A stretch of DNA of 64,000 nucleotides from a virus: UHGV virus genome UHGV-1352914. One strand, given 5' to 3'. Position 1 is the first letter of the stretch. The number at the start of each line of letters is the position of its first letter. This document shows positions 6,225 to 64,000 of this stretch, one piece after another. A program made the position numbers and the translations under genes. The notes below the pieces were generated by a model, which was given only the letters and a program-made list of their open reading frames with translations, was not told the DNA's origin and searched no databases.

Positions 6225-6974
6225 ATGGCTACTAAGAATACTGAACCCAAAGATGACGCATTGGAACTGGGAACCCCGGAACCCAATCAACTCGCGCTTG
6301 CCACGGAATACCATTCCTTCGAGGGCGAGACCGACGCTTCGGACATCCAGATTCCTTACCTCAAACTTTGGCAAGCCTCCTGCGACGAGGCTAAACTGGA
6401 AGAACCAGTGGGTAGTTTGGGTGCGTTCCTTCTCAACGGTCTGGTCGTTGCCGAGCGCAACAATCCTCTGGAATGTATTGTATTGAAGGCTCGTAAGTTC
6501 TTCCGCGAATATATTCCGTACAACGAACGTCAGCCGGGCGTATATGCTAAAACGTGGCTTACGAAGGAACAGTACGAAGCAGAAGGCTACGACAAGTCGC
6601 AGGTCAACCGCGCCCTCGCCATGTGGCTACTGGTTAAAAAGCCGCAGGGTATTAAGGACGCAAGCACCACGGAGGAAGACCTTGATGCTCTCTTCACTAT
6701 TGACTTCATGGGCGACCAGTGGACGCTGGCACGATACACGCCGGAAGGTAATCAGTATACGGGCGTTGGTGCTCCCTTCATTCAGTTCATGATGTTGAAG
6801 GGGAACAAGCTCGGCTCCCTGCCCTTCCGTGTCCAGATTGGAGCACAGCGAGCGGTCTCCCGTGACGGTAAGAACAGCTACGCCAAAGCGTATCTCAAGT
6901 TCAAACCGCACCCGGTGGAAGGACAGGTTGAAGCTATCCAAGAGATGGGCCTCCTTTCCGCGGTCACCAAGTAA
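6225..6974 (+). CDS. hypothetical protein (possible ssDNA-binding/annealing protein by context)
   Basis: ORF-track start 6162 is TTG inside the promoter; first ATG at 6225 (MATKNTEPKDD); lies between nuclease and resolvase; followed by terminator. Confidence 0.45.
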   Translation: MATKNTEPKDDALELGTPEPNQLALATEYHSFEGETDASDIQIPYLKLWQASCDEAKLEEPVGSLGAFLLNGLVVAERNNPLECIVLKARKFFREYIPYNERQPGVYAKTWLTKEQYEAEGYDKSQVNRALAMWLLVKKPQGIKDASTTEEDLDALFTIDFMGDQWTLARYTPEGNQYTGVGAPFIQFMMLKGNKLGSLPFRVQIGAQRAVSRDGKNSYAKAYLKFKPHPVEGQVEAIQEMGLLSAVTK

Positions 6975-7044
6975 ACCACTCCCGGCTCTGACGGGTTTAT
7001 CCCGTAGCACCGCATTGCGGGTAAAAAAGGAGCACGTTCTATTC

Positions 7045-7083
7045 GGCCATCATAGTACACTATGGTGGCCGTCTTATTTTTCC
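7045..7083 (+). terminator. rho-independent terminator
   Basis: GGCCATCATAG-ACACT-CTATGGTGGCC then GTCTTATTTTTCC. Confidence 0.5.
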
Positions 7084-7086
7084 GAC

Positions 7087-7115
7087 TTGACTAGTAGGGG
7101 TTTATCCAGTATAGT
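7087..7115 (+). promoter_or_regulatory. sigma70-type promoter TTGACT-N17-TATAGT, leaderless onto resolvase gene
   Basis: -35 7087-7092, -10 7110-7115; ATG 7121 only 5 nt downstream. Confidence 0.5.
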
Positions 7116-7120
7116 CTGTC

Positions 7121-7633
7121 ATGCAGATATTAGGTTGTGACCCCGGAACCCACGGAGCACTCGTACTCGCGGACACCCGGACTAAAAAAATCTGGATAAA
7201 ACACATGCCAGAGGACGAAAGGGAATTGGAGGTAATCCTCAACAAACTGCCGAGTAGCCGTCGTATCATGTACATTGAGAAGATGTCCTATGCCATGAGT
7301 GGCGGCGGCAAGGTGTCCAATCCGAGAAGTAGCGGCATCCTTGGCGAAGCCACCGGGAAGGTCCTCGGCTATGCCGCGGCGGCGGGGTACAATATTACAC
7401 GAGTCCCCCCTGTCGTATGGATGCGGGCTATGGGTGCGTATGATACGGGACTAACCGCAAGGGACCGCACGCGGTGGAAGAATAACTTGAAGCGCATCGC
7501 AATGGAGAACTTCCCCAATGCGAAGGTGACATTGCAGAACGCTGACGCTCTTCTCATACTACTGTATGCCTACCGGGAACTGAACAACGACCACACATTA
7601 ACTCTCGATAGCTGGGACATAGAAAGACTATAA
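7121..7633 (+). CDS. RuvC-like Holliday junction resolvase
   Basis: 170 aa; N-terminus MQILGCDPGTHGALVLAD matches RuvC/YqgF ILGIDPG motif; later acidic residue (MYIEKMS); leaderless start 5 nt after -10. Confidence 0.6.
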   Translation: MQILGCDPGTHGALVLADTRTKKIWIKHMPEDERELEVILNKLPSSRRIMYIEKMSYAMSGGGKVSNPRSSGILGEATGKVLGYAAAAGYNITRVPPVVWMRAMGAYDTGLTARDRTRWKNNLKRIAMENFPNAKVTLQNADALLILLYAYRELNNDHTLTLDSWDIERL

Positions 7634-7639
7634 CCTATT

Positions 7640-9475
7640 ATGGCACGCCATTTCACGAGATACGGACGACAGTGGGAGTACGGGGTATCAGAGCTTGACA
7701 TTGAACTCTGGTGCTTCAAATACGCATGGCCGGAAGAGAAGGGAGGGCTGGGCAGATACGGCCACGCCAAGAACGCCATCAACCTCCTGTGGAACTACAA
7801 GGGCAGTCCCACCCCCATCGTCTGGACCCCGTGGCTTGAACGCATGATAGAAACGGCGTGCAAGTATGATGTGGTCATCATGGGAGGCGGCTCCTCGTCT
7901 GGGAAGTCCTTCTCTATGGCTATCATGGCGACGCTCTTCTATCTGGCCGACCCGGTCGATACCCTTTGCCTCGTCACGTCGACTACCATCGAGGGTGCGA
8001 AGAAACGTATCTTCAAGGACATTAAACGACTGTGGCGCAAGGAGTTCCCCGGCAAGCTCGTTGACGGTAAGGGACAGATTAAAGGCGTGAACGAGAACGG
8101 AGGCATTGACGATTCCCGCGGCATCTCTATTATCCCCTGCGCGAACGTCGGCGACCCCAGCAGTCGCTTTATCGGTATTAAGGCAAAGAACATGCACGTC
8201 TTTTACGATGAACTTTCCGAACTGCCAATGGAACTCGTCGAGGTGTGGCGCACCAACCTTATTACCAACAGAGCGGACACCCCTCCGACCTTGATGGCCG
8301 CGTCCAACCCCAAGAGCCGTACCGATGCCTTCGGTGTGATGGCTATGCCCAAGAATGGGTGGAACAGCGTTGACATCTTTGAGGAACACGAATGGGAGAC
8401 CAAGGACGGGATTTACATCCGCTTCGACAACCTCCAAAACCCTCGCATCAAATATGGTCGCGAAGACTGGAGCTTCTATACGCCGTTGGACATTGTTCAG
8501 CAAACGGTTGAACAGTACGGGGAGAATAGCCCGTTCGTGATGCGATTCCACCGGGCCACCTTTTCAGATGATGCGGAAGAAGGTTCGCTAATGTCGGAAG
8601 CTGAAATTTACGGCAGTGGCGCAGATGCCATGCCCGTCTGGGGAGACGGCGAGTTGATTACCATCGCGGGATTGGACCCGGCCTATACCAACGGCGGCGA
8701 CCAGTCATGCTTGAAGCTCGCCAAAGTTGGAAGGACTGTCGAGGGCCTCTGGGCTTGTGCAGTCTTCCGTACCTATCTGTTGAAGTCTACGTCCGACAAG
8801 GAACGGATGAAGCAAAGGAACTTCGACATCGCCCAGCAAGTCGGAGAGATTCTCCGCGCGAACAATGTCGATAGCAAGTACCTTGCGGTTGACGTAACCG
8901 GGGGTACTGGTTTCATCGACATCCTCGCCCAACATGTCGGTACGGACTTCCAGACGGTCAGCTTCGCGGGTATGGCGAGCAAAGTGCCTATCGGTCTGTT
9001 GCAGAATCAGGAGGCATGCCAGCAGTATAGCAACAAGGTCTCCGAGCTTTGGGGTTGTATGAAACTGGCCATCAACGCTCGCCAACTCTACGGCCTTGAC
9101 CCGACAACTATCGTCGAGCTTAAATCCCGGCTCTACACCATGAACGGAACCCGAATTGCCGTGGAACCCAAGGTAGCCATGAAGAAACGGATTCATAAAT
9201 CCCCGGACAACGCGGACGCCCTAGCTCTACTGGTTCACGTATGCCGGGGAATCATGGGACCAGAGTTCGGTAAGATTAGGCTTGACATTCAGAATCATAA
9301 GGTGGTAGAACATCAAGAGGTAATCAAATATCGCGAAGATGGAACCGCATATATTGAATCCGCGGACATTGGCAGATACCTCGGAGGGTTTACCCATGAC
9401 GGCAACGCCTCCGCTCCTGCTCGCGACACCTTTGCTTCCGATGTATCCACCGCAATGCAAACTCTTTGGAACTAA
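7640..9475 (+). CDS. terL: terminase large subunit
   Basis: 611 aa; Walker A VVIMGGGSSSGKSF near N-terminus, C-terminal nuclease-like acidic residues; directly upstream of portal/head genes. Confidence 0.8.
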   Translation: MARHFTRYGRQWEYGVSELDIELWCFKYAWPEEKGGLGRYGHAKNAINLLWNYKGSPTPIVWTPWLERMIETACKYDVVIMGGGSSSGKSFSMAIMATLFYLADPVDTLCLVTSTTIEGAKKRIFKDIKRLWRKEFPGKLVDGKGQIKGVNENGGIDDSRGISIIPCANVGDPSSRFIGIKAKNMHVFYDELSELPMELVEVWRTNLITNRADTPPTLMAASNPKSRTDAFGVMAMPKNGWNSVDIFEEHEWETKDGIYIRFDNLQNPRIKYGREDWSFYTPLDIVQQTVEQYGENSPFVMRFHRATFSDDAEEGSLMSEAEIYGSGADAMPVWGDGELITIAGLDPAYTNGGDQSCLKLAKVGRTVEGLWACAVFRTYLLKSTSDKERMKQRNFDIAQQVGEILRANNVDSKYLAVDVTGGTGFIDILAQHVGTDFQTVSFAGMASKVPIGLLQNQEACQQYSNKVSELWGCMKLAINARQLYGLDPTTIVELKSRLYTMNGTRIAVEPKVAMKKRIHKSPDNADALALLVHVCRGIMGPEFGKIRLDIQNHKVVEHQEVIKYREDGTAYIESADIGRYLGGFTHDGNASAPARDTFASDVSTAMQTLWN

Positions 9476-27844: not shown

Positions 27845-27895
27845 CAGGACAACTGGCTTATCGATTCCGTACATCGAAATGTCAGGACGTTAAAT

Positions 27896-27952
27896 CCCAC
27901 GGAACCCACGGAACCCACGGCCAAATGGCCACAATGGGTTCCGTGGGTTCCC
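27896..27952. repeat. imperfect cruciform: (CCCACGGAA)x3 facing GTTCCGTGGGTTCC
   Basis: left arm 27896-27920, spacer with GGCCAAATGGCC, right arm 27936-27952; intergenic. Confidence 0.7.
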
Positions 27953-28004
27953 TTGTGTCTCGCCCACAGGCGTGTGCGGCTGTGTCATACCAGTTAAAAA
28001 TTTC

Positions 28005-38736: not shown

Positions 38737-41700
38737 ATGGCTATCGACTTTAGTACCGCCAATATGTCCGACTTCGCTCCGACGTCGGCAAGCAGTATCG
38801 CGCGTGAACAGCGAGCCGCAGAACGGCACGCCACGTGGCAAGAGACGCAAAAACAGAAACAGGAAGACAGAGCACAGAAAGCACTGGACCGCGAGCAAAG
38901 GTTAGCGGAAAAGAAACAGACCCGCGCGGAGAAAGCCGCAGGAGCTACCGCGGAGTTTGATGACTATGTCTTTAAGTCCATTGATGACTTTCAGAAGAAA
39001 CAGACTGAACAGGCAGACCGCGCACGTAACGTAGAATGGGAAACAAAAAGCCGCGCCCATACGGAACAAGGATGGAAAACCACCGCGGAAAAGGCTGACA
39101 TTGATGTCTTGAACAAAGGAAACCGTGGGTTCACCTTTGAGGGAATCGACTACATGAAGGACTATGTAGACCGCGGAGAAGATGCGCTGGTTGATTTGAA
39201 GGCCGCCGCTCGTGGTGATAGTGACGCCATTAAAAAGCTTACGAATAACACGGGCATCGTCGCAGTCTCTTCCTCCGAACTTTCTCCCCAGCATCCCGCA
39301 TTCTTATCCCGCTTTGGCTTCGGCATGGGAGAGGACGGGAACCCCGTCGTAACGGAAAAGTTCCTCGCCATTGCCGCAGACAGAAACCGTAACGCAAAGG
39401 CGGTGGCCAAATCCATCGCCAACACAATGGAGAAGGCCCGGAAGGATTACCTCAACTCGCATCTAGATGTTGGTACAGGTAAACCTAAAGCAGAAGCCAT
39501 CGAGACTGCACCCATTGCTTACACTGCGGAGGAAATAGAAAGCATCATCAATACGATTAGGCGCGAAGACATTGACAACTATCGTGCCGCTAAGTCTCTC
39601 TATACTAAGCACCGAGCCGCTTCGACGGAGAACGTGCAGAAGAAAACCCCCAGCCAGACGAACGTGGGGGAGCTTGGCGTTGGCGAATTCTCTGATTCAG
39701 CACCTTCATTTACTGGGAATGTTTTTGCTGAACTCGCCAACCTCTCTAAGTCTCCCAGCAAAATGTTCCGGCTTGTCCGCGACTACGGGGATTACCTTTC
39801 CCGGAACGGTGATATCTATATCCCCGGGCATCAAACTTCAAAGAAAGAAAAACCTGTTGAGGATAGGATTCGTGAACAGATAGAGGCGGCAGACAAAATC
39901 GTAAGACGGCTCGAAGAAGACTACACTGGCCTTCCCTACCTCGAACTTCGCGACGCGATTCTCAATCCGGAAGCCGCGGCCTCTACCCTTCTGTCTTTAG
40001 TCCCCAATGCTGACATGGACGCAATACGTGCAAGGGCCGAAGTTCTTGCCAAGGACCTTCGTCGCAAGAAGGACCGCCCCCTGACCTTCGAGACCGATGA
40101 ACAGATTGGCATGAGTGAGGCTATACTGGAAGCCGTGGCTACAAGGTTTCCGGGGGTTCCCAAATCCACCCTGTACCAAGCGGGAGTAACCAATCTGATT
40201 CAGGGTTATGTCGCCAAGGCTACGCCGAGAGGCACTCTCATGGATGCGGTCAATGGTGCAATGGCTAACTACCGAAGCACGGCGGGACAAATTGCGGATG
40301 TGCTTACCTTCCAACCGGGAGATAGTGTGGGCAAGACCTCTGACCCATTGAGTACGATGGAATGGAGAAAGGGAACGAGGCGTGGCACATGGGAGTATGG
40401 CGTACCGGGGGGTCCCTCTTTTGATGTAGGTCCCGAACGGTTGAAGGAATACATGGCCCAGTACCATATCGAAAGTACCCGCGACGCTCTCAACTCCCTC
40501 TCCCATGCCGCACGTATGGGTGACTTGGGCGTAGGCCGTGGCAGTCTCTTTGCGTACAATCCGCACACCAAGGAAGTAGATACGAATGCCACTCTCGAAC
40601 TGAACCCCAATGCTCTCTACGACAATAAGCTGATGGACAAGAGCATTGAGGCTCTCCGTGCTAGTGGCGCGGACGAAGGTCTCATCAATCGCACCATTGA
40701 GAAGTTCCAGAACCTCCGCACGAAATCCGCACAGGAACTTGTGAAGGACAACATTGCATTGGATGAAACGCTGGGAACGCTCCGTGATACGTGGCTTGGT
40801 TCCGGTATGCGGTTCAACCCTGTCTGGACCGAAACCATGAAGCATCTGGACAAGTACCTTTCCTTCAAGAATTTTTACAACGAACAGAAGGAAGCGGGCA
40901 AGAGCGACGAGGACATTCTCTCCGCATGGCAGGAGAAAGGACAGGCTCACATCAATCCTATTCTCCGTGGGTTCCAGATAGGCACGCACAAGGCCATTGA
41001 CCTTGGGACAGGGGCCGCCTATGGTGCTCTTCTCTTTGCGCAGAATGCAGTCGGCAGTCGTGCGGCGATGGAACATACCCGCACCCTCTGGGACCAGCTG
41101 AACAAAAAACAGGAAGCGGAAGCTGAACTTGTTCGAGGCAATATCATTGCAGACTATACTGCGGAAATCGCTAACCTCGGCTACCAAATGGTAGCAACCG
41201 CGGGGGCTGGTAAAATCGGTGGCCTTGCTGGCCGTGCATTGGAACGTACCGCTCTGACCAAGTTCGCGAGGGCAATGGCTAACGTCGCGGCGAGGCGGGC
41301 AGAAGCTCTTGTCCCTGCCGCCCGTCCGGGATTGGCGGGACGTTTGAGTGGAACTATTCAGCGCAACCTCAACAACCTTGCGGCGTTGAGCCTCGAACGG
41401 GCAGGAGCTGGTGCTGGGGTAAACCTTACCATCATCTCGCAGGTTGCACCGAATGCTTACTCCGACATCTTCTATACCATTTATGACAGGGAGATGGAAG
41501 GGAAGGAAGCGACTGCCGAGAACACGAACCGGGCACAGAGCATTGCCAGCAGGCATGCCCTCTTTGGTGCGGCTCTGGTCTCCACTGGCAGTACGCTTAT
41601 CAACAACCGCGCAGGTATGGATTCCTTCATGCGTAAGGTTGTTGGGGCTAAAAACCTTCGCGGCCAATCTCCAGTCCAAACTCTTGAACAGAAGATGGCC

Positions 41701-44700
41701 AGATGGAGAAGCAAGCCGTGGGCTGAAATGAATACCAAGGAGAAGACGTTTGCCGTTGCTTCCTATTTGTACAGCACGAGCATGGCCGCAGTGGAAGGAG
41801 CCACCGAAGAACTGGCAGACGAATTCCAAGAGTGGGCATTTACTGAACTGGTGAAGAACGGAGAAATCTCCGAATCCTCTATTGCCACTACTGACCAAGT
41901 GATTAGCGGTGCTATAAAGACTGCTTTCCTTGGGGGTATCGGCGGCTACGTTGGTAGCCAGTTAGCTGGTGAAGGGAACATACGTTTCCAAACCGAAGCC
42001 GCTCCCACCCTTGATGTAAAGGATGCTACTTCCATACTACCGGATATTACGAAAGATGCGAGCAACATCATCGAGGAAACGGGCAAAGCCATTACCAAGG
42101 ATAATGTACCGGAAAGCTTGGTAGAAACCGGAAAGAGGGTTATCGAGATTGCCGGGGAGAAGGGGGATGCCGCGGAAGTTGCCCGCGAATGGGTGGACAA
42201 ATCCATTGCCCATGAAAGTCTGGCAGTCTCCGATGAAACCCGCAAGGCATGGGTGGAAGGCGCAACCCGTATGGGCATCAGCAATTTCACCCAGTTCCGC
42301 AACCTAGTTGAACGGGCCTCCGAAATATATACCTACGAGGGTAGTGCCGCGGCAAGCTCATTCATGGCAGAAGCCATTAACGACCTGCCCAATACCCTGT
42401 CATTCCCAAATAAGGAAAACCTCGACACCATGCGCACCATGCTTTCGGAGGCCCTTGATGCTATGGGAGACAGGGTTCAGGTTATCGAAGTAGACGACGA
42501 CCTGTCCATCATTACTACAGGGGACGAGGACCTCGATGCCGCTCTTCACGTCATTAACGGATTGACGGAACCCACGGCTACCACGGAACCCAAGGAATCC
42601 CCGACTACCGCGGAACCCACGGCTACCGCGGAACCCACGGCTACCGCGGAACTCACGGCGCGGAAGGAGAGGGACCAAGCCATTGCCCCCGTCACTAACA
42701 TGGTAGATACGGGAGTAGTTACCCCCGAAGCCGTGGAAACCGTGGATACCTTGGATGCCGCCATTACTTCGTTCGACCCCAACACTGGGGCATGGCTTTC
42801 ATCCGGTTCACCTCTTGACCGCGGAACCAAGCTCGTCTCCTTGAACGAGATGACCGGGATTAACGCCCCGCTGGTTACGAGCAACACGGGAGAAACCATT
42901 GTCGTCTCTCCGCACGCAAGCATGTACAACATGGGTGAGGGAGGGACACCCAGCACCAAGTGGGGGGATAGGGTCTCCGCTCTCAATCTCCCCTCTGACG
43001 GGACGGGCGTAAATGCCTACGGCATCCTTTCGGACCTTCGCGTCAAGGCATCTCCTGCACAGGCCGCGGCCATTGACGGAGTGCTCCGCGCATTGCATGC
43101 CGCTGGTTTGGACGTGGCTATCCGAGCCACCAATGCTCCTGCCAATATAGCCTCCCCCGCCAGTATCACGTATAAGAACGGAACAGACGGGAAGCTCGTC
43201 GGCGGCGTCATTGACCTGTACATGGACCGGGACAATGTGATTGAGAGCGTAACGGGAACAGTACTGCATGAGGCCATCCACCTCATTGACCGTCATCTTC
43301 GTGCCACTAACGCGGACTACTCCCAGCGGATGGACAAGATTAGAAGCGCAGTTGCGGAGAACTATAATCAAATCATTGATAGCCTCACTGCTATGTATGA
43401 AGCTAGCGTGGACATCAATGAGATGAATGCCATCGCCGCGCTTGCCTCCGACCTCAACTATGGTCTCCGTGGCCCGGACGAATTTGCCAGTGTTGCGTTC
43501 TCCAATCCTGTCATGAACTTCATGATTGCGGAGGTGAGCGGAGACAATGTAACCCTCACGGATTTGGCTCGCTATGCCGAAGCGGCTGGGGGCAGGAGAC
43601 CCGTTCATGTGCGCCTCATTGAATGGCTTAAGGATTTGATTAGGGATGTGCGGCAAACTGCGGACGACATGGATGGAACCACCGCCGCCAAGAATGCGGC
43701 TGAATGGGATTCCTATGTGGACCGCGTCGCGGACATAACCCCCGGCAAGTGGTTCGACATGCCTCGCACTCCGTCATGGAAAGTAGACGATACGGACTAC
43801 ACCATGAGCCGTGAGGTAGATTATTTTAACCCGTTGGCCTATGAGACCGACATGACCCAAAGACTGTCCTTCGGTCTGGGCGCAGAGATTATCGGTACGA
43901 ATGCCGGGAACTGGGTAACCAGTGTTAAGAACGTATGGCAAGGCGTGTCTAAGGGCTGGGACAAAGCTGGCATCAATGTTAAGTCCGAGGAACAGAAGCT
44001 GATTGTGCTGGAACAAATGACCAACGTGAATGCGGCGTATGAACGCAGTATTAAACGCATTGGCAAAATCGGCGATATGCTTCAACGCCGTGCGGATAGT
44101 CTGGGCTGGGATGCCACGACGCGAAAGAAATGGAGCAAATCCATTCTCGATATGTCGGGGAATATGGACAACGATATTGACCCTGAAACTGTTGCACGCA
44201 TTAACGCAGAGGCCCAAGCAGAAGTTCGCCAGCACGAACAGACCCGCGACTTCCGTATCGCGTTGGCTAAGAAGACCGTTACCGATGCCGTCAATAGGCA
44301 CGCGGAAGCGGTGCGTCTGGCCAACTCCCTTGCGCTTAATAGTGAAGGGCGATTGGAAATCAATGAGATGATGCGCCGGATTAAAGACATGAGCGTCAAG
44401 GGATATGGTGCTATGCTGGACAAGACGGTGGCTCTCCCCATGCTCTCCCAGCAGATTCACAATGTGCTCTCTGACCTTGGCTCTCGTATCTCCGCGACGG
44501 GGGATGCCAATCTGGAAACCACCTACTTTGGCCTCGCCCGTGATACGCAGAACTACCTTGCGGATATGATTAACGAGGTGGACAGTCCCTTCTCTATGGA
44601 TGAACTTCTGGACAGGTGGTCCAACCTTCGCAACGACTACCTCTATGCGGAGAGTACAAACCACCCCGCCATCGCTCCTATGATTCAGGACATCTCTAGG

Positions 44701-47700
44701 GCACGGGCCGAAGCTAAACAAATCATCCGGGAAGCCAACGATGATTTCCATGCCGCAACAAAGAGGGCAGGTGTAACTCGTGCTGGCGTAACTACCCCTG
44801 CTGGTTCCGTGTGGCTGAAACGGGACAACGCTATCCTCGATGCACGCCGTCAGAAACAGGCAGAGTATATGGCTAAGCGGGATGCCGCGGAACAATGGCT
44901 TCTGTCACAGGGAGTTGTAGGCCAGCTGGTCCACAATGTCATCGCCGATTCCCGTAAAGAAATTGCCGCAACGCAAATCTCTATTGCCAAGCTCATTGGA
45001 GATAGCCGTATGGCTAACAACGCCGCGGAGATGAATTATCTTCATCGCACCTACATGGCCGTAGGTCGTCATGCCGGAGACTTCACCCGGACGATGAAGG
45101 ACATCATTGCACACCCCAACGGAGAACTGGCGCAGAAATACGATGGCCTGACGAAGTTGTTGCAGGAAGCCGCAATCGCTCATGCCGAAGCGCACCAGAC
45201 AGAGTTGTCCGAAAACATAAGCCAAGTGCTGGACAACATGCAGGCATTGGCCGCGCTCCATGACGAGTTGAAACTTCCGCTGGTGTCAGCTCCCACGGGA
45301 GCCTCTTCGAATTATAAACTCCTGTTCGAAGGTGTAGCCAAGAACTACAGGACCAGAGAAATTCTTGACTTCATTCAGAACAACTTCGGCAGGGTTCAAA
45401 TGCTTGCGGACCTGCGGGATGGCCACAACATCAGTGCCATGTATAATAAGGCCATGAGCATGATAGCACAGGCTGACTATCGCACGAAGTCAAAGATGGC
45501 AGAGATGAAAGAAACTCTGGACATGAAAGCCAGAGATAGTTTCCTCGCCGATGTCTTCTCCAGCCTTCCGGGAAACACGATTGCCGACAAAATCGGCGGC
45601 CTTGAATCCCCGGCATCCGTGGCTTCCGAAGTGAACAAGGCCATCCCCACTATCCCGACTTCGGCCATTGACCAGATATGGAACGCTCCGAATATGAATG
45701 CCGCAGAACGACTGGACAAGACGCTCAATCTTCTCCGTGGTCAGGCGGGCATTCTCATGGGGGCGAACAATATGGGCAACGTCATCTCCGCTACCGACTT
45801 GAAAGTGTTGCAATATCCGGAACTCTCCCGTCTTGCGGTGAACGATGCCATGAAGGCCATTGACGAAGTGCTGACCAAGAAGAGGACGAATGAAGATGCG
45901 CTGGCCCAGCGGAAACGCTTGCCCGAATGGCAGAGGAAAGCTATGTATGAACTTAGTGACCTCACCATTGGGGATGCCATTGGGACATTGCAGAATACCA
46001 TATCCATGCAGTCGAAGATTGCCGTGAACCAGTTGCTTGCTGACGAGTACGCCACCGTGCTCAAGGCACAGGGTGTAGTCGTACCCCCGGATTCCGCGAG
46101 CCGTACCCCTGATATGGTGGAAATCTCCTTGAAGAATACGAAGAATGCGTTGAACGGATTGTATGCCGACAAGGATGTAGCCGATGCACTCTATCACATC
46201 TACAGGCCAAGCGACGACATCATGAACAGTCGGACGGACGACTATAAGAAGGTGCGCAAGTACTGGCAGAAGTCCGGCAAGGGTCAAGAATGGTGGAGTA
46301 AGGCGGGTGGCTTGGCTAACCTTTCTGTCTTAATAGCTAGTCCTAATTCCACGTTACGTAACTTATATGGTACAGTAGCTCAAATGACCCATGCGGGTGC
46401 ACTTCCATTCACGGGGAGTAAAGACATCGCAAACCTTGTCGGGGACTGGGTCCAGTTGCGTAAGTTGTGGTGGCTATCACAGGGCAAGGACCTTGGTTCA
46501 CAGGCTTCCGCAGATAGACTGCTGGCCGCGGAAGACAGGTACAACGAGAAGATTCGCTACTGGCAAGAGCTTGGTCTGCTGGACGCAGGTCAAGGGGAGT
46601 TCCTGCGCAACGTCTGGAAGTCTGACGAGTTCAGTAAGATGGCAGGAGAATTTGAAGAAGTGAATGAAGATTCCTTCTTCAAACTCGCCGAAGCTCTGAA
46701 CGAGAAACAGGAACGGACGAAGGGCGAGGTGGCTAAGGATGCCGCCAAGATGGCGGGCAAAGTCGTAGCATGGCCCGTCAAAACGATGGCCTTCGCCTAT
46801 GGCTTGCCGGACGCGGCGGCCAAGATTGTTCTCTTCACTAACCAGAGAGCGATTGCCGATACCCAATTAAAGGTACAACTGGCACGGGCGAAAGGCAAGG
46901 CCAACCCCAATGCGCGGGACCAGATACTCCTTGACGCGAGCCAGACTGACCAGAGTTGGAATGCGTATGTGGATAGGTATACTGCCCACATGGTGAAGAG
47001 CTTGCTCCCCACGGGTTCGCGTACTCCTTCGTGGGTGAAAACCCTGAATATAGTTGCGGCTCCGTTCTTCATGTTCCAGTACCATACCGCCCAGTCCGTA
47101 GTCTACAACCTTGGCCACGCCATAGGCGAAGGGGTAGACGGTGTGTGGGCTATCAATAACGGCATGAAGAAGGAGGGGGCTTACCTCTTGGGACGCGCTT
47201 TCGTTCGCATCGCTGGTTCCGTAGGAACTATTTCTGCAACCTCTGCGGTCTCTTCCTGGGTTGCCCGACAGATTATCACCAGTGTCTTGGGAGATGACGA
47301 TGACCGTAAAATCATTGACGACGCGGAAGTCATGAGGAAGCTGGCAGACAGTGGGCTAATTCCCGACTATGATAAGTTCGGGGACTTGATTGGCATCATA
47401 GATATGAAGCGGCATGAGTTCGAGTATTTGAACCTTGAATACATGAACCCGTTCAAGACCATCAAGGTGTTAGCCAAAACCCTGCCCAGCCTCTTCATGG
47501 ATATGGATGTGGACAAGTGGGGGATGAACAAGGTCGCCGAACTGAAAAACCTGCTGGAAAATACGGTGCTCGAAGAATCCCTCCTTCTGAACGCCGCTTC
47601 TGAATTGTTTAATGAGGAAGACTTCAATTACAAGCATAGCCTCTCAGGTGATGAAAGTGTCAACGTTCTCCCGGCAGTAGGCAACGCAATCCTGTTGGCC

Positions 47701-48402
47701 GCAGGACTGAACCCCTCGTTCGGCAGTGGACATACATGGCAAGTCCTTGAACGATTCGCGACGGTTGCCAATAAAAAGATTCCCTTCTACGGCTGGGCAG
47801 TCAAGTCAGGTAAACAAGCGTTTAGCGATACACCTGACATGAGTGGCGCGGCATACGGGTTACAGTCCTTGGGTGCGGGCCTCCGTCGTCCGAAGGATTT
47901 GACCGAAGCCCTTGCCGCCGGGTTAAAGAATGCCAACGCGGCGGTCACTAAGTCGAAGCGAATGAGCATTCTGCGTCCGGACTTCTACAAGAGAATGGAA
48001 TCCGGGATGGATGTGGAACTCATGGAAGCCGTGGAAACCGCGGATGCCGTGAAGAATTTCACCAAGCTAGTCAATAGTGTCCGGTTCGTTACGGAAATTA
48101 CAAACATGCTTGACCCGTCCATCCGTTCGGAAGTTCTGGCCTCCGTGATTGAGAGTTCCGGTATGAGTGCCAAGACCTACGGCGCGGCCATGCAGGGCAT
48201 CATGCCCTACGTCATTAGCCCGCAAGCAGGACGTGAAGCTATCGCGAAGCTCAACCGTGAATTGCAGAAGTCTAATACCACGGACGAGGGCAAACGCCTA
48301 ATCGAAGAGCAGAAGCAACTCATTATCAACCTCATGCGGAAGGGTAGCATTCCGATTGATGGGGCATTGAGTACAGAGGAAATTCATAATCGGATGAAGT
48401 AG
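38737..48402 (+). CDS. giant 3221-aa virion-associated/internal (ejection-type) polyvalent protein; function unresolved
   Basis: uninterrupted 9.67-kb ORF; Ala-rich, coiled-coil-rich; HExxH zincin-like motif GTVLHEAIHLIDRH; TEPTA coding repeats 42566-42660; own promoter 38657-38684. Confidence 0.6.
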   Translation: MAIDFSTANMSDFAPTSASSIAREQRAAERHATWQETQKQKQEDRAQKALDREQRLAEKKQTRAEKAAGATAEFDDYVFKSIDDFQKKQTEQADRARNVEWETKSRAHTEQGWKTTAEKADIDVLNKGNRGFTFEGIDYMKDYVDRGEDALVDLKAAARGDSDAIKKLTNNTGIVAVSSSELSPQHPAFLSRFGFGMGEDGNPVVTEKFLAIAADRNRNAKAVAKSIANTMEKARKDYLNSHLDVGTGKPKAEAIETAPIAYTAEEIESIINTIRREDIDNYRAAKSLYTKHRAASTENVQKKTPSQTNVGELGVGEFSDSAPSFTGNVFAELANLSKSPSKMFRLVRDYGDYLSRNGDIYIPGHQTSKKEKPVEDRIREQIEAADKIVRRLEEDYTGLPYLELRDAILNPEAAASTLLSLVPNADMDAIRARAEVLAKDLRRKKDRPLTFETDEQIGMSEAILEAVATRFPGVPKSTLYQAGVTNLIQGYVAKATPRGTLMDAVNGAMANYRSTAGQIADVLTFQPGDSVGKTSDPLSTMEWRKGTRRGTWEYGVPGGPSFDVGPERLKEYMAQYHIESTRDALNSLSHAARMGDLGVGRGSLFAYNPHTKEVDTNATLELNPNALYDNKLMDKSIEALRASGADEGLINRTIEKFQNLRTKSAQELVKDNIALDETLGTLRDTWLGSGMRFNPVWTETMKHLDKYLSFKNFYNEQKEAGKSDEDILSAWQEKGQAHINPILRGFQIGTHKAIDLGTGAAYGALLFAQNAVGSRAAMEHTRTLWDQLNKKQEAEAELVRGNIIADYTAEIANLGYQMVATAGAGKIGGLAGRALERTALTKFARAMANVAARRAEALVPAARPGLAGRLSGTIQRNLNNLAALSLERAGAGAGVNLTIISQVAPNAYSDIFYTIYDREMEGKEATAENTNRAQSIASRHALFGAALVSTGSTLINNRAGMDSFMRKVVGAKNLRGQSPVQTLEQKMARWRSKPWAEMNTKEKTFAVASYLYSTSMAAVEGATEELADEFQEWAFTELVKNGEISESSIATTDQVISGAIKTAFLGGIGGYVGSQLAGEGNIRFQTEAAPTLDVKDATSILPDITKDASNIIEETGKAITKDNVPESLVETGKRVIEIAGEKGDAAEVAREWVDKSIAHESLAVSDETRKAWVEGATRMGISNFTQFRNLVERASEIYTYEGSAAASSFMAEAINDLPNTLSFPNKENLDTMRTMLSEALDAMGDRVQVIEVDDDLSIITTGDEDLDAALHVINGLTEPTATTEPKESPTTAEPTATAEPTATAELTARKERDQAIAPVTNMVDTGVVTPEAVETVDTLDAAITSFDPNTGAWLSSGSPLDRGTKLVSLNEMTGINAPLVTSNTGETIVVSPHASMYNMGEGGTPSTKWGDRVSALNLPSDGTGVNAYGILSDLRVKASPAQAAAIDGVLRALHAAGLDVAIRATNAPANIASPASITYKNGTDGKLVGGVIDLYMDRDNVIESVTGTVLHEAIHLIDRHLRATNADYSQRMDKIRSAVAENYNQIIDSLTAMYEASVDINEMNAIAALASDLNYGLRGPDEFASVAFSNPVMNFMIAEVSGDNVTLTDLARYAEAAGGRRPVHVRLIEWLKDLIRDVRQTADDMDGTTAAKNAAEWDSYVDRVADITPGKWFDMPRTPSWKVDDTDYTMSREVDYFNPLAYETDMTQRLSFGLGAEIIGTNAGNWVTSVKNVWQGVSKGWDKAGINVKSEEQKLIVLEQMTNVNAAYERSIKRIGKIGDMLQRRADSLGWDATTRKKWSKSILDMSGNMDNDIDPETVARINAEAQAEVRQHEQTRDFRIALAKKTVTDAVNRHAEAVRLANSLALNSEGRLEINEMMRRIKDMSVKGYGAMLDKTVALPMLSQQIHNVLSDLGSRISATGDANLETTYFGLARDTQNYLADMINEVDSPFSMDELLDRWSNLRNDYLYAESTNHPAIAPMIQDISRARAEAKQIIREANDDFHAATKRAGVTRAGVTTPAGSVWLKRDNAILDARRQKQAEYMAKRDAAEQWLLSQGVVGQLVHNVIADSRKEIAATQISIAKLIGDSRMANNAAEMNYLHRTYMAVGRHAGDFTRTMKDIIAHPNGELAQKYDGLTKLLQEAAIAHAEAHQTELSENISQVLDNMQALAALHDELKLPLVSAPTGASSNYKLLFEGVAKNYRTREILDFIQNNFGRVQMLADLRDGHNISAMYNKAMSMIAQADYRTKSKMAEMKETLDMKARDSFLADVFSSLPGNTIADKIGGLESPASVASEVNKAIPTIPTSAIDQIWNAPNMNAAERLDKTLNLLRGQAGILMGANNMGNVISATDLKVLQYPELSRLAVNDAMKAIDEVLTKKRTNEDALAQRKRLPEWQRKAMYELSDLTIGDAIGTLQNTISMQSKIAVNQLLADEYATVLKAQGVVVPPDSASRTPDMVEISLKNTKNALNGLYADKDVADALYHIYRPSDDIMNSRTDDYKKVRKYWQKSGKGQEWWSKAGGLANLSVLIASPNSTLRNLYGTVAQMTHAGALPFTGSKDIANLVGDWVQLRKLWWLSQGKDLGSQASADRLLAAEDRYNEKIRYWQELGLLDAGQGEFLRNVWKSDEFSKMAGEFEEVNEDSFFKLAEALNEKQERTKGEVAKDAAKMAGKVVAWPVKTMAFAYGLPDAAAKIVLFTNQRAIADTQLKVQLARAKGKANPNARDQILLDASQTDQSWNAYVDRYTAHMVKSLLPTGSRTPSWVKTLNIVAAPFFMFQYHTAQSVVYNLGHAIGEGVDGVWAINNGMKKEGAYLLGRAFVRIAGSVGTISATSAVSSWVARQIITSVLGDDDDRKIIDDAEVMRKLADSGLIPDYDKFGDLIGIIDMKRHEFEYLNLEYMNPFKTIKVLAKTLPSLFMDMDVDKWGMNKVAELKNLLENTVLEESLLLNAASELFNEEDFNYKHSLSGDESVNVLPAVGNAILLAAGLNPSFGSGHTWQVLERFATVANKKIPFYGWAVKSGKQAFSDTPDMSGAAYGLQSLGAGLRRPKDLTEALAAGLKNANAAVTKSKRMSILRPDFYKRMESGMDVELMEAVETADAVKNFTKLVNSVRFVTEITNMLDPSIRSEVLASVIESSGMSAKTYGAAMQGIMPYVISPQAGREAIAKLNRELQKSNTTDEGKRLIEEQKQLIINLMRKGSIPIDGALSTEEIHNRMK
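42566..42660 (+). repeat. 18-bp coding tandem repeat (GCGGAACCCACGGCTACC) x~4 inside giant gene
   Basis: encodes TEPTA(T/E) units. Confidence 0.8.
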
Positions 48403-49496: not shown

Positions 49497-49584
49497 ACCC
49501 GCAACGACATCATTCTGTTTGGACTGTAAGTTGTTTGGGTTCTAAGCGAAAACCCCGGAAGAGAATTCCTTCCGGGGTTTTTGT
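49497..49584 (+). ncRNA. candidate ~85-nt small RNA between convergent gene blocks
   Basis: predicted TSS ~49500 from orphan promoter; GAACCC...GGGTTC stem then terminator hairpin; no ORF. Confidence 0.25.
49553..49584. terminator. bidirectional rho-independent terminator at convergence point
   Basis: CCCCGGAAG-AGAATTC-CTTCCGGGG flanked by AAAA upstream and TTTTTG downstream. Confidence 0.65.
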
Positions 49585-49585
49585 A

Positions 49586-51632: not shown

Positions 51633-53610
51633 TTGTGATTGATGGATTAAGCATTTGCATGAATTCTTCTTCTGTGATTGAAGGAATCTTGTGGAGCTTC
51701 GCTATCTTTTGCTTATGTTCTCCGGGTTCCTTACCGACAACTAGATAGTTGGTCTTCCTTGACACGTTCTCCTTGACCGTGCCTCCCATGTCCTGAACGA
51801 GCAGGTTATATACATGGCGAGGCTGGGACAGGATTCCCGTGATGACGAAGTTCACACCCTTTAAGGCCGTGCTCTTTGGTACATTGCCTTCGACATTAGG
51901 GATGTCTCCCGTCATAACCATTGTCGTCATCTCATTCCACGTAGGCACGGTCTCCATGTAGTTCAGAATTGCCTCGGTCATCAGGGGGCCGAACTCCGCA
52001 TGACGCTTGCTCCTTAAATCTTCGGGGAAGAGAGTAAGGAACGTGTAGAGATTGGGGTACATGCGGGAGAGATTTTCCGCACGGGTACTACCGACATGAG
52101 GAATCTCCATTGCAGTAATCCATTGAGCAAGAGACGCATGGTGCTTCCGTTCCTCCACGATTTCAAGGAATCCCCGGTATCCTTGGGTTCCGGGGATTCC
52201 GTTAATGAGATTGTCCATCATGCCGGACATGAGAAGCAGGAACGGGTGATGGAGGTAAGCAGTCTGCGCCGTCGGCGGTTCCACATCAGCCTCTCCCTTG
52301 ATTAGTTTGTCCGCAATCATGCGAGAGAATACGAGGCCCATGCCGTCAATATCCAGTGCGTTCTTTCCGCATGCGTATTCCAGCTTGGCCGCTACCTTAT
52401 CCCTGCACAACGGATTGATGCAGAAGGTGTCGAGGCCACAAGAGTATAGAGTGGAGCCGCAACATGGACAGGTCAGAGGGACAACGGAATCCGTATTGCC
52501 ACAGCCGCGAACCTTGCGGACATAGGGGATAATCTCTCCTGCCTTAACCACCTCCACGGTATCCCCGATATGGAAGGACGCCGCATTGGATGCGTTGGAG
52601 AGGGAGGCACGGGATACATTGGTTCCACCAATCTTCACCGTATCAAATACCGCAACCGGGGTAAGAACTCCGGTTCTGCCTACTTGCCAAATGACATCCC
52701 GGAGGGTAGTCTCTACGCCCTGCGGGTTGAACTTAAAGGCTACCGCGTCCTTCGGGTGATGGGCAGTAGCCTCCCCTGCCGCGGCAATGGCGTTCTTCTG
52801 GTTCAACTTAAACACAATACCATCAGTAGGATAGGCGATGTCGTCACGCAGGTACTTGGCCATGTCCCGGATGCATTCATCCGTCAGGGCTTCGCCTTCT
52901 GGCCATTCATTGGGAAGGGTTACGAGGTCAAACATTTCCATCAGCCATCCATGCAGTTCCATGCGGGATTCAATCCCATCCGGCATGGGGCTTGCATCAA
53001 ACGGGATGAAGGTAATGAGCCAGTCAGACCACTTGAGATTATTATTTCGGAGTTGACCAACGGCACAGGCGCGGAGGTTGGAGTACCCCATGCTTTCCAC
53101 CCGCCCCTCTTCACTCTTAGCTACAACCACTTCCCCACGGATAGCTCCCGTATAGTTCCCATAACTTGGTGGGACCATATAGAGAACCTTATCAAGGGGA
53201 ATGACCTCCCCCTCGGTTCCGTTGCCACGAGTAACGGCACGAACGAGCCGCCCATTTTCGATGTACAGAACGAGGGTAAGGCCATCATACTTCGGTTCAA
53301 CCACGACATCCCTCCCCGCAACCCAGCCTCGAAGCTGGTCCATGCCAATCCCATCCTTGCCCTCATGAATCTTGGCGAGAGACAGGACGGGATTGGGATG
53401 CCGGAAGGTCTTGGCTCCGCATTGTACGTCGTCCCCTAGGCTATCGAGTTCCTTGGATTCCGGGGAACGGGAACGCAGTTCTTCAACCAGCGTATCGTAA
53501 ACCGTGTCGGGGAGAAGGGTTTTCCCTTCGTGGTAGTAGGAGCTATTGAAGATAGCAATCACTTCTTCCAACTCCATCACGCTCGTGTTTTTAGGATTGC
53601 CTATTTCCAT
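51613..53610 (-). CDS. ligA: NAD-dependent DNA ligase
   Basis: 665 aa; adenylation KxDG motif EPKYDGLTLVLYIENGRLVRAVTRGNGTEGE; Zn-finger Cys (CPCCGS...C...C); C-terminal BRCT-like segment (NYLVVGKEPGEHKQKIAKL). Confidence 0.8.
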   Translation of the reverse strand: MEIGNPKNTSVMELEEVIAIFNSSYYHEGKTLLPDTVYDTLVEELRSRSPESKELDSLGDDVQCGAKTFRHPNPVLSLAKIHEGKDGIGMDQLRGWVAGRDVVVEPKYDGLTLVLYIENGRLVRAVTRGNGTEGEVIPLDKVLYMVPPSYGNYTGAIRGEVVVAKSEEGRVESMGYSNLRACAVGQLRNNNLKWSDWLITFIPFDASPMPDGIESRMELHGWLMEMFDLVTLPNEWPEGEALTDECIRDMAKYLRDDIAYPTDGIVFKLNQKNAIAAAGEATAHHPKDAVAFKFNPQGVETTLRDVIWQVGRTGVLTPVAVFDTVKIGGTNVSRASLSNASNAASFHIGDTVEVVKAGEIIPYVRKVRGCGNTDSVVPLTCPCCGSTLYSCGLDTFCINPLCRDKVAAKLEYACGKNALDIDGMGLVFSRMIADKLIKGEADVEPPTAQTAYLHHPFLLLMSGMMDNLINGIPGTQGYRGFLEIVEERKHHASLAQWITAMEIPHVGSTRAENLSRMYPNLYTFLTLFPEDLRSKRHAEFGPLMTEAILNYMETVPTWNEMTTMVMTGDIPNVEGNVPKSTALKGVNFVITGILSQPRHVYNLLVQDMGGTVKENVSRKTNYLVVGKEPGEHKQKIAKLHKIPSITEEEFMQMLNPSITNEKDSD

Positions 53611-58947: not shown

Positions 58948-59047
58948 TGTTTTATTTCTTTCTACTGATTTGTTGGTTGGTTTTACTTTAGCAGATTTTA
59001 TTACTTTGTCAAATAGTTTTTATTTGTATGACAAAGGCATATCTTAT
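58948..59047 (-). promoter_or_regulatory. early-arm repeat unit (hairpin-less variant)
   Basis: TGTCATACAAA box, TTGACA (+ 59007-59012 revcomp)-N16-TAAAGT, conserved RBS box. Confidence 0.45.
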
Positions 59048-63451: not shown

Positions 63452-63540
63452 GATTTTATTCTTTCTTTTAGTGTTCTCATTTCCGGGGGGTTGCCCCCGT
63501 TGATGATTGCAATTTAACACACCCGCCGGGGGCGTCAAGT
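63452..63540 (-). promoter_or_regulatory. early-arm leader unit with hairpin CCGGGGGGTTGCCCCCG
   Basis: hairpin 63483-63499 plus conserved RBS; no clear TTGACA (first cassette next to origin-like region). Confidence 0.35.
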
Positions 63541-63582
63541 GGTTTTCTTTCCGTTGCGTTGTAACTCGCTCATTATCTGCGT

Positions 63583-64000
63583 GTTATAATTGTGTCATAC
63601 AACTTCTCCGGTCTCCATTGCACCCCCGGATTCCCCGGTATCCGGTTCCCCGGTATCCGGTTCCCCGGTATCCGGTTCCCCGGTATCCGGTTCCCCGGTC
63701 TCTCTCTTATATATATATATAGTGTAGGAGACTTTTTGGCTTCTTTTGGTATCTTTTGGTTTTAGATTGTTCCATGTGGAACATTTTAGCAATTCTGATT
63801 CCCCGGTATCTGGATTCCGGGGGTTGTGGTGGATAGCAGGTGCAATGGATTCCGGGGTTGCCGGGGGTGCAATGGCTTCAACCGTTACCGGGGATTCCGG
63901 GGGTGCAAGATAGTTAAGGATTCTTAACTATTAAGGATTCTTAAACATTCCCCTTGTAAGTCTGGACTAACTTTTTAAGCCTAGCCTAACATTGTAAGTG
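63583..64000. other. putative replication origin / genome-terminus region
   Basis: non-coding; iterons, (TC)3(TA)6 at 63701-63721, three TTTTGG tracts at 10-bp phase 63733-63765, GGTGCAATGG x2, GATTCCGGGGG x3, TTAAGGATTCTTAA x2. Confidence 0.4.
63631..63700. repeat. iteron-like 15-bp direct repeat TTCCCCGGTATCCGG x4.5
   Basis: four perfect head-to-tail copies 63631-63690 plus partial. Confidence 0.8.

Follow-up and report, generated by a model that had tools for sequence, protein, structure and literature searches.

A hypervariable tandem-repeat arm in the 2.9-kb non-coding region of an uncultured human-gut phage genome

Repeat-rich non-coding regions of viral genomes

[quoted passage not shown] The present study concerns a repeat-rich stretch in the UHGV virus genome UHGV-1352914, of which 64,000 nucleotides, here termed the window, were analyzed. 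This stretch (positions 63583 to 64000) represents the left arm (hereafter, the arm) of a 2.9-kb non-coding region. The region resembles that of PLE in being a gene-free section of several kilobases in a small viral genome with several repeat families, some of which are not part of the origin; here, the origin-like module forms one end of the region, while the arm carries a different set of repeats. The two differ in that the PLE origin was established experimentally, whereas the phage region is known from sequence alone, in that the PLE repeats are not reported in PMC7145576 as hypervariable minisatellites, and in that the PLE initiator is RepA_N, as opposed to a VapE-like primase-helicase in the phage. 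We propose, with a rough probability of 40%, that the arm is the hypervariable part of a DNA-level region with early control and architectural, protein-loading functions.

Iteron origins with cassette-specific initiators are well described for lambda (ori and O), P4 (ori and crr with the alpha primase-helicase) and the Staphylococcus aureus pathogenicity islands (SaPIs; ori and Rep). Iterons are repeats of fixed sequence and length that bind a cognate initiator, such that the repeat sequence co-varies with the initiator, and the crr cluster of P4 illustrates that a second, distant set of repeats can assist an origin. A module at 65.9-66.4 kb of the phage genome is similar to these systems in that short repeats flank an AT-rich stretch by an initiator/helicase gene and change together with the protein; the arrays of the arm differ from them, having no fixed unit, period or number and being unchanged by the replication cassette. 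Reiterations are also found at concatemer junctions, as in the arrays beside the T7 terminal repeat and the DR2/DR4 and pac1 elements of the herpesvirus 'a' sequence, a parallel that serves as a lead only. The arm shares with these its clusters of short tandem reiterations and its T-rich elements, set between C and G runs, beside early genes, and with herpesviruses a copy number which varies among strains; it differs in that the arrays themselves account for its contig breaks. The arm resembles bacterial contingency loci and variable-number tandem repeats (VNTRs) in its changes of copy number by slippage between genomes that are identical elsewhere, and the polyomavirus control region is likewise hypervariable, non-coding and situated between divergent early and late units beside an origin. 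Unlike contingency loci and the polyomavirus region, the arm comprises six or more arrays side by side that differ in unit, and, unlike contingency loci, its arrays are not placed between a -35 and a -10 element and gave no sign of switching genes on or off by copy number. The kinship of the arm is to viral non-coding control regions and VNTR clusters.

Repeat-rich non-coding regions of uncultured phages are routinely labelled as origins by their look alone. The comparative data presented below split one such region, of 2.9 kb, into a cassette-linked, iteron-bearing and AT-rich origin-like module and an adjoining minisatellite cluster.

Extent, composition and turnover of the arm

The window is part of a circularly assembling genome of ~70.1 kb. 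A contig of 70,158 bp from the European Nucleotide Archive (ENA), which was found via a protein encoded near the window end and which runs on beyond position 64000, was joined to the window through a perfect 2,354-bp overlap on the window start, yielding a circle of 70,132 bp (89% coding), to which positions beyond the window end refer. The plus strand encodes, in order, a VapE-like primase-helicase, a family A DNA polymerase, a helicase, an exonuclease, the large terminase, structural genes and an orphan protein of 3221 amino acids (aa), while the minus strand specifies an NAD-dependent ligase and ~25 small genes. A single divergent strand switch exists in the genome, and it is there that the repeat stretch is located. 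An earlier note on the window had placed it exactly where leftward early transcription starts, a position which agrees with the minus-strand promoter TTGACG-16-TAAATT (Table 1), an A-rich, UP-like stretch being present immediately to its right; a similar promoter-plus-hairpin cassette precedes other small minus-strand genes.

The same note had described the stretch as a 420-bp sequence without open reading frames (ORFs) and with an origin-like architecture. It is non-coding, as the only ORFs are repeat artefacts of 45-71 aa and as relatives harbor units of 7, 8 and 17 bp at matching places, which excludes coding. The stretch is not a self-contained unit, since the non-coding region to which it belongs extends from 63539 to ~66444 (2,906 bp, ~2.4 kb of it past the window end) and is by far the largest gap in the genome. 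This extent follows from the finding that two called genes just right of the arm, of 93 and 269 aa (positions 7812-8093 and 6944-7753 of the near-identical genome L001; reconstructed ~64,394-65,543), are not coding. When compared to ~25 relatives, mismatches at the three codon positions numbered 360/364/292 in the 93-aa call and 820/885/739 in the 269-aa call, as opposed to 362/253/1121, 85/38/185 and 238/183/391 in real-gene controls, and single-base indels were numerous in both calls, exceeding 100 in that of 269 aa. With no excess at the third codon position, both gene calls are spurious, and annotation of this phage is affected accordingly, as gene callers place these two genes within the region.

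The DNA at the two calls is nevertheless conserved, blocks at ~64,225-64,330 and ~64,930-65,200 being more than 95% identical among relatives, a level above that of coding DNA, and it contains five phased TACCGATTCCG motifs, a 27-nt repeat present twice and an 85-bp repeat present twice. It may represent a large non-coding RNA or DNA element, one without an Rfam match. Within the arm itself, collagen-like Gly-X-Y coding repeats were considered because the 9-mers all start with GG, and were rejected on the basis of the 7-, 8- and 17-bp units and of further copies of the motif elsewhere in the genome, which are read in every frame and from either strand. A CRISPR (clustered regularly interspaced short palindromic repeat) array was ruled out, as the units are directly adjacent and without spacers.

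All repeats listed in the earlier note were recovered at the positions given there and at frequencies far above chance. Its four and a half perfect 15-bp repeats correspond to array 1, which consists of four perfect TTCCCCGGTATCCGG copies and one partial copy (Tandem Repeats Finder [TRF], 15 bp x 4.9, 63626-63699, 98% matches, score 139). The CT run and TA run are present at 63700-63721, the latter being (TA)7 (63708-63721) rather than the reported (TA)6, and the three in-phase TTTTGG tracts, for which a spacing of 10-11 bp had been given, end at 63739, 63749 and 63759, being spaced by exactly 10 bp (TRF period 10). Also confirmed were GGTGCAATGG at 63841 and 63868, GATTCCGGGG(G) at 63813, 63848 and 63893, and the near-palindrome TTAAGGATTCTTAA at 63915 and 63932, a third copy of which lies beyond the window end, just before a terminator-like hairpin. 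The motif GATTCCGG has 15 matches in the window (3.2 expected), three of which fall in the arm. GGTGCAATGG and GATTCCGGGGG were found to be pieces of one 17-23-bp box, TTGCACCCCCGGATTCC, with sites at 63618 (+), 63856 (-) and 63892 (-) and three more past the window end (64314, +; 64378, -; 66235, +); when up to one mismatch is allowed, all copies fall in this non-coding region.

Contigs related to the window genome are known from many human-gut metagenomes. Among isolated phages, megablast returned no close relative and the best protein matches did not exceed 27% identity; therefore, no reference origin or terminus is transferable. Across more than 20 lineages the arm displays a common module order: the leftward early promoter, TGtTATAAT-TGTCATAC, array 1, a CT or GA run with (TA)n and the T-tract triplet are followed by (GTAAAT)n or (TGCATAAA)n, the palindrome TGTTCCAYRTGGAACA and then (TTTATGCA)n, (CAATCSGG)n, (GATTCCG)n or (GGTTCCGGG)n; next come the box GTTGTGGTGGGATAGCGG, right-arm units (GGGTTCAAC)n, (GGCTTCAAS)n or (GGTGCAATG)n, then (TTAAGGATTCATAACTA)n and a 19-20-bp array, and finally a hairpin, ATACCC-loop-GGGTAT, and the terminator-like hairpin GGGCA-N6-TGCCC followed by CTTTTCT. 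The pieces conserved in sequence are the extended -10, (TA)n, the phased T-tracts, the 16-bp palindrome, the GTTGTGGTGGGATAGCGG box, the 14-bp palindromes and the terminator-like hairpin. Even these vary to some extent, in that the TA run ranges from (TA)3 to (TA)9, the phased T-tracts are present in most relatives and absent in L006, the palindrome occurs as TGTTCCAYRTGGAACA in every relative examined except L018, and the 14-bp palindromes number one to five, the divergent L018 possessing TTAAGGTTTCTTAA x4. TATAAT and GTCATAC are kept in nearly all relatives and are deleted in L009/L010.

The tandem arrays, which make up 21-48% of the arm (38-48% outside the L009/L010 deletion lineage), have periods of 2, 6, 7, 8, 9, 10, 15, 17 or 19-20 bp or multiples thereof, and the span of the arm ranges from 514 to 1000 bp across lineages. 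Array 1 has a 15-bp unit in the window (x4.9) and in L001 (x2.9); elsewhere its unit is 17 bp (x2-3.6; L003, L012 and L060) or 9 bp (x2-8; L006, L029, L059 and others), or it is reduced to a single copy (L009). Between the window and L001 there were no mismatches over 11.8 + 2.4 kb, the sole difference being 30 bp in the 15-bp array, while L009 and L010 differed by 7 mismatches over 10.9 kb, with all three indels located in arrays (including one GTAAAT and one TA unit gained or lost). The arrays are hypermutable minisatellites whose copy number varies between near-identical genomes, as is characteristic of VNTRs; their units are gained, lost and replaced at a pace well above that of change elsewhere in the genome. 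As such, the cluster constitutes a natural marker for strain typing.

While the units turn over, a strand asymmetry is retained. In 18 of 19 lineages, the top strand to the left of the palindrome contains 3-9 C-runs and 0-1 G-runs (mean skew, -0.14), and to its right 5-12 G-runs and 0-1 C-runs (mean skew, +0.26). The persistence of this switch through unit turnover points to selection on composition and polarity, not on sequence, and is the strongest argument for a functional arm; if functional, it would represent an unusual cis-element, selected for composition over sequence. An extension of this idea, which we regard as unlikely, holds that the arm is a functional element defined by composition and symmetry, built as an AT-rich, bent and palindromic core with G-run minisatellites diverging outward from it, whose polarity is selected while its units are free to turn over, and which would serve as an R-loop- or transcription-activated second origin or as a concatemer-junction/packaging signal of a new gut-phage lineage, its hypervariability stemming from an arms race with a nuclease directed at the cis-site. 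A precedent for such a race is the origin-directed nuclease of phage ICP1, which targets PLE origins.

The opposite position, that the arm is a functionless spacer and a slippage hot spot between constrained neighbours in a genome prone to 9-bp tandem duplications, draws on the copy-number changes, these being the only indels between near-identical genomes, on the two-fold variation in arm size, and on array types that go neither with the kind of replication cassette nor, as judged by inspection, with the first leftward gene. It also agrees with a genome-wide pattern, in which GGNTTCC occurs 137 times (52 +/- 6.5 expected; 2.6-fold over), 9-bp-phased GGNTTCC dimers (GGNTTCCNNGGNTTCC) occur 28 times (0.63 expected), lying inside genes in all frames and on both strands, and tandem repeats within coding sequence recur at periods of 9, 18, 27 and 36 bp. 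The genome seems generally prone to 9-bp duplications of GGNTTCC, the arm being the place where these are least constrained. A spacer is nonetheless quite unlikely, given that every lineage keeps the arm despite the compactness of phage genomes, that the order, the anchor sequences and the C-run/G-run switch survive complete unit turnover, and that the deletion in L009/L010 removed a gene and two promoters and stopped exactly at the arm. Examples of the GGNTTCCNNGGNTTCC motif can be found at 24060, 27901/27936, 42726-42750, 48015-48048, 52167-52200 and 55950.

Replication, early control, RNA and packaging as candidate roles

The origin architecture proposed in the earlier note, which comprised iterons, an AT-rich unwinding element and bent DNA, was borne out as regards an easily melted, bent core; its designation of the 15-bp repeats as iterons was not. 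The interval 63698-63799 is 69-72% AT and ranks 10th (40-bp window) and 5th (100-bp window) in duplex instability within the genome, while the least stable duplex at every window size is at 66,102-66,201, which includes 93% A+T over 40 bp. Among close relatives, array 1 has a unit of 9, 15 or 17 bp in 1 to 8 copies; the 9-bp and 17-bp versions each occur with more than one replication type, and the replication cassettes A, B and C share array kinds. With no fixed unit, period or number and no change with the cassette, the arrays lack the defining property of iterons. Cumulative GC skew, which had been suggested as a check, reached its maximum at 66,016, away from the arm; its sign is that of the coding strand in each of the two gene blocks, so that skew by itself does not diagnose an origin.

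Co-variation of repeats with replication proteins was evident at 65.9-66.4 kb, directly upstream of the replication genes, the primase-helicase gene starting ~3.5 kb from the arm. In the type A module of the window genome, 9 of 17 YTAACA[GC] sites fall, in both orientations, within 600 bp at 65.85-66.45 kb (9 of 10 in the module of L029), as do 5 of 8 CCTAACA sites, and the associated proteins are a 288-aa protein and a 963-aa primase-helicase. Type B is characterized by TAACAA[CG], all 16 sites of which lie within 630 bp of L024, and by a 952-aa primase-helicase with 30% identity to that of type A, while type C possesses AGGACC (9 of 18 sites within 460 bp of L019) and a 280-aa protein unrelated to the 288-aa protein. 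The three iteron families thus occupy one position, each with different replication proteins, and a repeat family that changes jointly with the replication proteins is the behaviour to be expected where an origin pairs with its initiator. The main origin most likely lies at 65.9-66.4 kb, ~2.3 kb to the right of the arm and outside the window; the candidate spans 65,850-66,445 of the reconstructed genome (L001 ~6640-6043). Array 6, which shares CCTAACA with type A, was considered as a second cluster of origin iterons similar to the P4 crr and was set aside, as its array family is also found with types B and C.

It is possible, if doubtful, that the arm is itself a true origin, either primary or secondary, with a bent palindromic core from which G-run arrays diverge outward. 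The arrays would then load the SF3 (superfamily 3)-type primase-helicase head-to-head, or would stabilise R-loops formed by nearby transcripts, which could prime the Pol I-type polymerase of the phage as in T7 and ColE1. This would be in keeping with the low stability (5th to 10th in the genome) of the (TA)7/T-tract stretch, T-tracts phased at 10 bp, a conserved palindrome, convergent 23-nt boxes on both sides of the core, inverted (GGTTTCCAC)4 and (GTGGAAACC)3 arrays around an AT-richer spacer in L018, the C-run to G-run switch kept in 18 of 19 lineages, the conserved promoter immediately upstream, and the family A DNA polymerase and VapE-like primase-helicase encoded by the phage. Weighing against it are arrays whose sequence, period and number are not conserved and do not co-vary with the three replication cassettes, a core in which no outward promoters were seen, and a GC skew that tracks the coding strand and is not diagnostic; moreover, the module at 65.9-66.4 kb is the better candidate, as it combines iterons specific to the cassette with the skew extreme and the lowest duplex stability in the genome. 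An auxiliary role of the arm in replication is possible.

The favoured reading, that of early control and protein loading at the DNA level, holds that the arm acts as DNA and would be tied to the start of early transcription. Its AT-rich, bent and palindromic core would be bound by a putative dimeric protein and flanked by rigid arrays rich in G and C runs, which would be slipped-strand minisatellites rather than sequence-specific iterons. The TGtTATAAT element at 63582-63590 would fire rightward into the arrays, and the resulting transcripts are predicted to cross the arm and to stop at the hairpin at ~64130-64160.

Several observations weigh against this proposal. No helix-turn-helix or regulator family was detected among ~80 phage proteins scanned, and no binding protein was identified; no outward-facing promoters were apparent in the core by eye; and the 9-bp-phased dimers were not enriched near promoter-like sites (7 of 58, with 5.8 expected), a result on which GGNTTCC arrays were also rejected as transcription-factor sites near promoters. 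The core, being AT-rich, bent and placed between convergent 17-23-bp boxes with diverging G-run polarity, is origin-like. In L009/L010 the arrays are kept although the rightward promoter is gone, as is the first early gene; transcription from the 63582-63590 promoter is, therefore, not essential. In addition, every functional statement made for the arm derives from the comparison of sequences.

The arm may be transcribed, since a conserved TATAAT is present upstream and a conserved hairpin with a T-run downstream. A very improbable alternative is that the functional product is a non-coding RNA of ~560 nt, extending from the 63582-63590 promoter to the hairpin at ~64130-64160, the repeated motifs of which would act as RNA, for example by sequestering protein in the manner of a sponge or by offering the transcription terminator Rho a C-rich site of entry. 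The upstream TATAAT is conserved and the downstream GGGCA-N6-TGCCC then CTTTTCT is kept in all relatives but L018; furthermore, the first 100 nt of such a transcript would be C-rich and G-poor, and two small-RNA-like genes, each with a near-consensus promoter and a strong terminator, occupy the same non-coding region. These points are countered by the lack of any Rfam match for the arm at an E value of 0.3 or better and by its predicted folding, which gave a z-score of -5.3 in L001 and of -0.95 in L012, the latter no better than shuffled sequence; the predicted fold is significant only in genomes with long inverted repeats of their own. Compensatory change was found in none of 37 pairs in the terminator and the ultra-conserved segment, no RNA motif is common to the repeat units across relatives (GGA being present in some and absent in others), and the promoter is absent in lineage L009/L010. 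The arm has no conserved RNA fold.

The two candidate small-RNA genes are situated at L001 ~6930-6820 and ~6810-6690 (reconstructed ~65,556-65,800). Their promoters, TTGACT-16-TAGTAT and TTGACA-16-TATAGT, are near consensus, and their strong, paralogous terminators have a common loop, GGAGGTAGGCTYGTCCTGCTTCC; the genes are kept in relatives, with extra copies in L019. A strong minus-strand terminator facing the opposite way is located nearby (L001 7310-7353; ~65.15 kb).

The earlier note had also allowed for a packaging or terminal-repeat region, and contigs do end in the arm in large numbers: more than 30, from independent assemblies, break there, most of them in the 19-20-bp array. The breaks, however, are spread over arrays 1, 4, 5 and 6, in every case within tandem repeats, and contig 117010 (69,566 bp) has the same (GGTGCAATG)n array at both ends, which together point to an assembly break rather than a genome end. 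Several full-length contigs read through the arm (the 70,158-bp ENA contig and others of 71,674, 70,540, 69,686 and 69,343 bp). The contig ends match what arrays longer than the assembler k-mer produce, and the arrays thereby account for the breaks at this place in assemblies of a phage that is widespread in the human gut.

That the arm is a packaging or concatemer-junction region (a pac, cos or terminal-repeat boundary), in which the small terminase would bind the arrays, bent DNA would help wrapping and the cut would fall near the palindrome, is improbable. Besides the many contig ends, it would accord with the arm belonging to the only large non-coding region, beside the small early genes expected to be first into the cell, with the quasi-palindrome, phased bends and arrays on both sides, and with an 8-fold clustering of CCGG sites (17 in 418 bp). 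On the other side stand the scatter of the contig ends over tandem repeats, the matching arrays at both ends of 117010 and the read-through in other full-length contigs. Furthermore, the large terminase gene (7640-9475), at the head of the structural operon, is ~14 kb away round the circle; its product has a weak best match, with 27% identity, to P22-like headful terminases, and no small terminase subunit was identified.

Feature coordinates and further observations on the genome

The features of the arm are collected in Table 1. The phased T-tracts are predicted, from their phasing, to be intrinsically bent DNA, and the 14-bp palindromes look like operator sites at which a protein may bind. 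DnaA boxes, sigma-54 promoters, NtrC and LexA sites and CsrA-binding GGA hairpins gave, by eye, only partial or mis-spaced matches that were not kept in relatives, and the Neisseria DNA-uptake sequence was absent from the window.

Table 1. Positions of promoter elements, arrays, palindromes and boxes in and beside the arm (window coordinates)
Feature	Position	Strand	Basis or remark
Leftward sigma-70-type early promoter, TTGACG-16-TAAATT	63511..63538	-	Consensus match; would serve the first small early gene
Extended -10 element TGtTATAAT (63582-63590), then TGTCATAC (63593-63600)	63582..63600	+	Kept in nearly all relatives
Left copy of the TTGCACCCCCGGATTCC(CCGGTA) box	63618..63640	+	Inverted repeat, 23 nt, 96%; partner at 63887-63909
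Array 1, 15-bp minisatellite TTCCCCGGTATCCGG x4.9, top strand C-run-rich	63626..63699		TRF
CT run, then (TA)7	63700..63721		Sequence; relatives compared
Three TTTTGG T-tracts phased at 10 bp	63733..63763		Sequence and TRF
Conserved 16-bp palindrome TGTTCCATGTGGAACA	63768..63783		Relatives; top-strand C-run to G-run switch point
G-run-rich right arm: GATTCCGGGG(G) x3, GGTGCAATGG x2, conserved GTTGTGGTGGATAGC box, inverted TTGCACCCCCGGAATCC boxes at 63856 and 63892	63797..63912		
Two 14-bp palindromes TTAAGGATTCTTAA, 17-bp spacing	63915..63945		Sequence; relatives compared
Start of the 19-20-bp array (TAAGYCNNGYCTAACWTT)n	63955..64000		Continues past the window to ~64060

A recurrent cassette, consisting of TGTCATAC, an A-rich stretch and TTGACA-16-TAAAnT, precedes many small early genes, with sites at 59033, 59561, 62565 and 63047 on the minus strand and at 27983 and 33691 on the plus strand, and some copies carry a GC hairpin such as CGGGGGCAACCCCCG in the 5' leader. 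N4-like hairpin promoters for a virion RNA polymerase were considered and dropped, as the GC hairpins before these genes are themselves preceded by ordinary sigma-70 promoters and as the 3221-aa protein harbors no polymerase motif. Intergenic inverted arrays of 9-mers, (CCCACGGAA)x3 and (GGGTTCCGT)x2, are present at 27890-27951 and are followed, ~60 bp downstream, by a TGTCATAC element with a TTGACC-16-TATGAT promoter.

The 3221-aa orphan (38737-48402) had no Pfam, PHROG or PDB match, and a search for homologues returned a single fragment; it contains acidic linkers rich in Thr and Pro and, near residue 1511, a zinc-protease-like HEAIH motif, and is probably a virion or ejection protein.

A scan of ~80 phage proteins gave no integrase, ParA/B partition protein, protelomerase or RNA polymerase, nor any regulator that could be recognised. 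A temperate or plasmid-like lifestyle was dropped on the absence of the integrase, ParA/B and protelomerase families from this set, and a search of genome contigs for host genomes or prophages with a 37-nt conserved pattern produced no match. The phage may be described as a virulent-looking, uncultured phage of the human gut. GATC is absent from the window and from the reconstructed genome (~210 sites expected), in both of which CTAG occurs at 0.44 of expectation; the absence of GATC is a clue to the host, hinting at Dam methylation or a GATC-specific restriction system. The sigma-70-type promoters and a G+C content of ~51% provide further clues.

At the end of contig IMGVR_UViG_3300045988_092614, positions 1-700 of L012 contain sequence beyond the primase-helicase gene which is absent from the window genome and whose translation, by eye, resembles a TnpB/IS605 OrfB-type transposon protein. 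Finally, a perfect GC hairpin between A-runs and T-runs (AAAACCCCGGAAG...CTTCCGGGGTTTTT) is situated at 49545-49585, at a convergent strand switch, where it probably functions as a bidirectional terminator.

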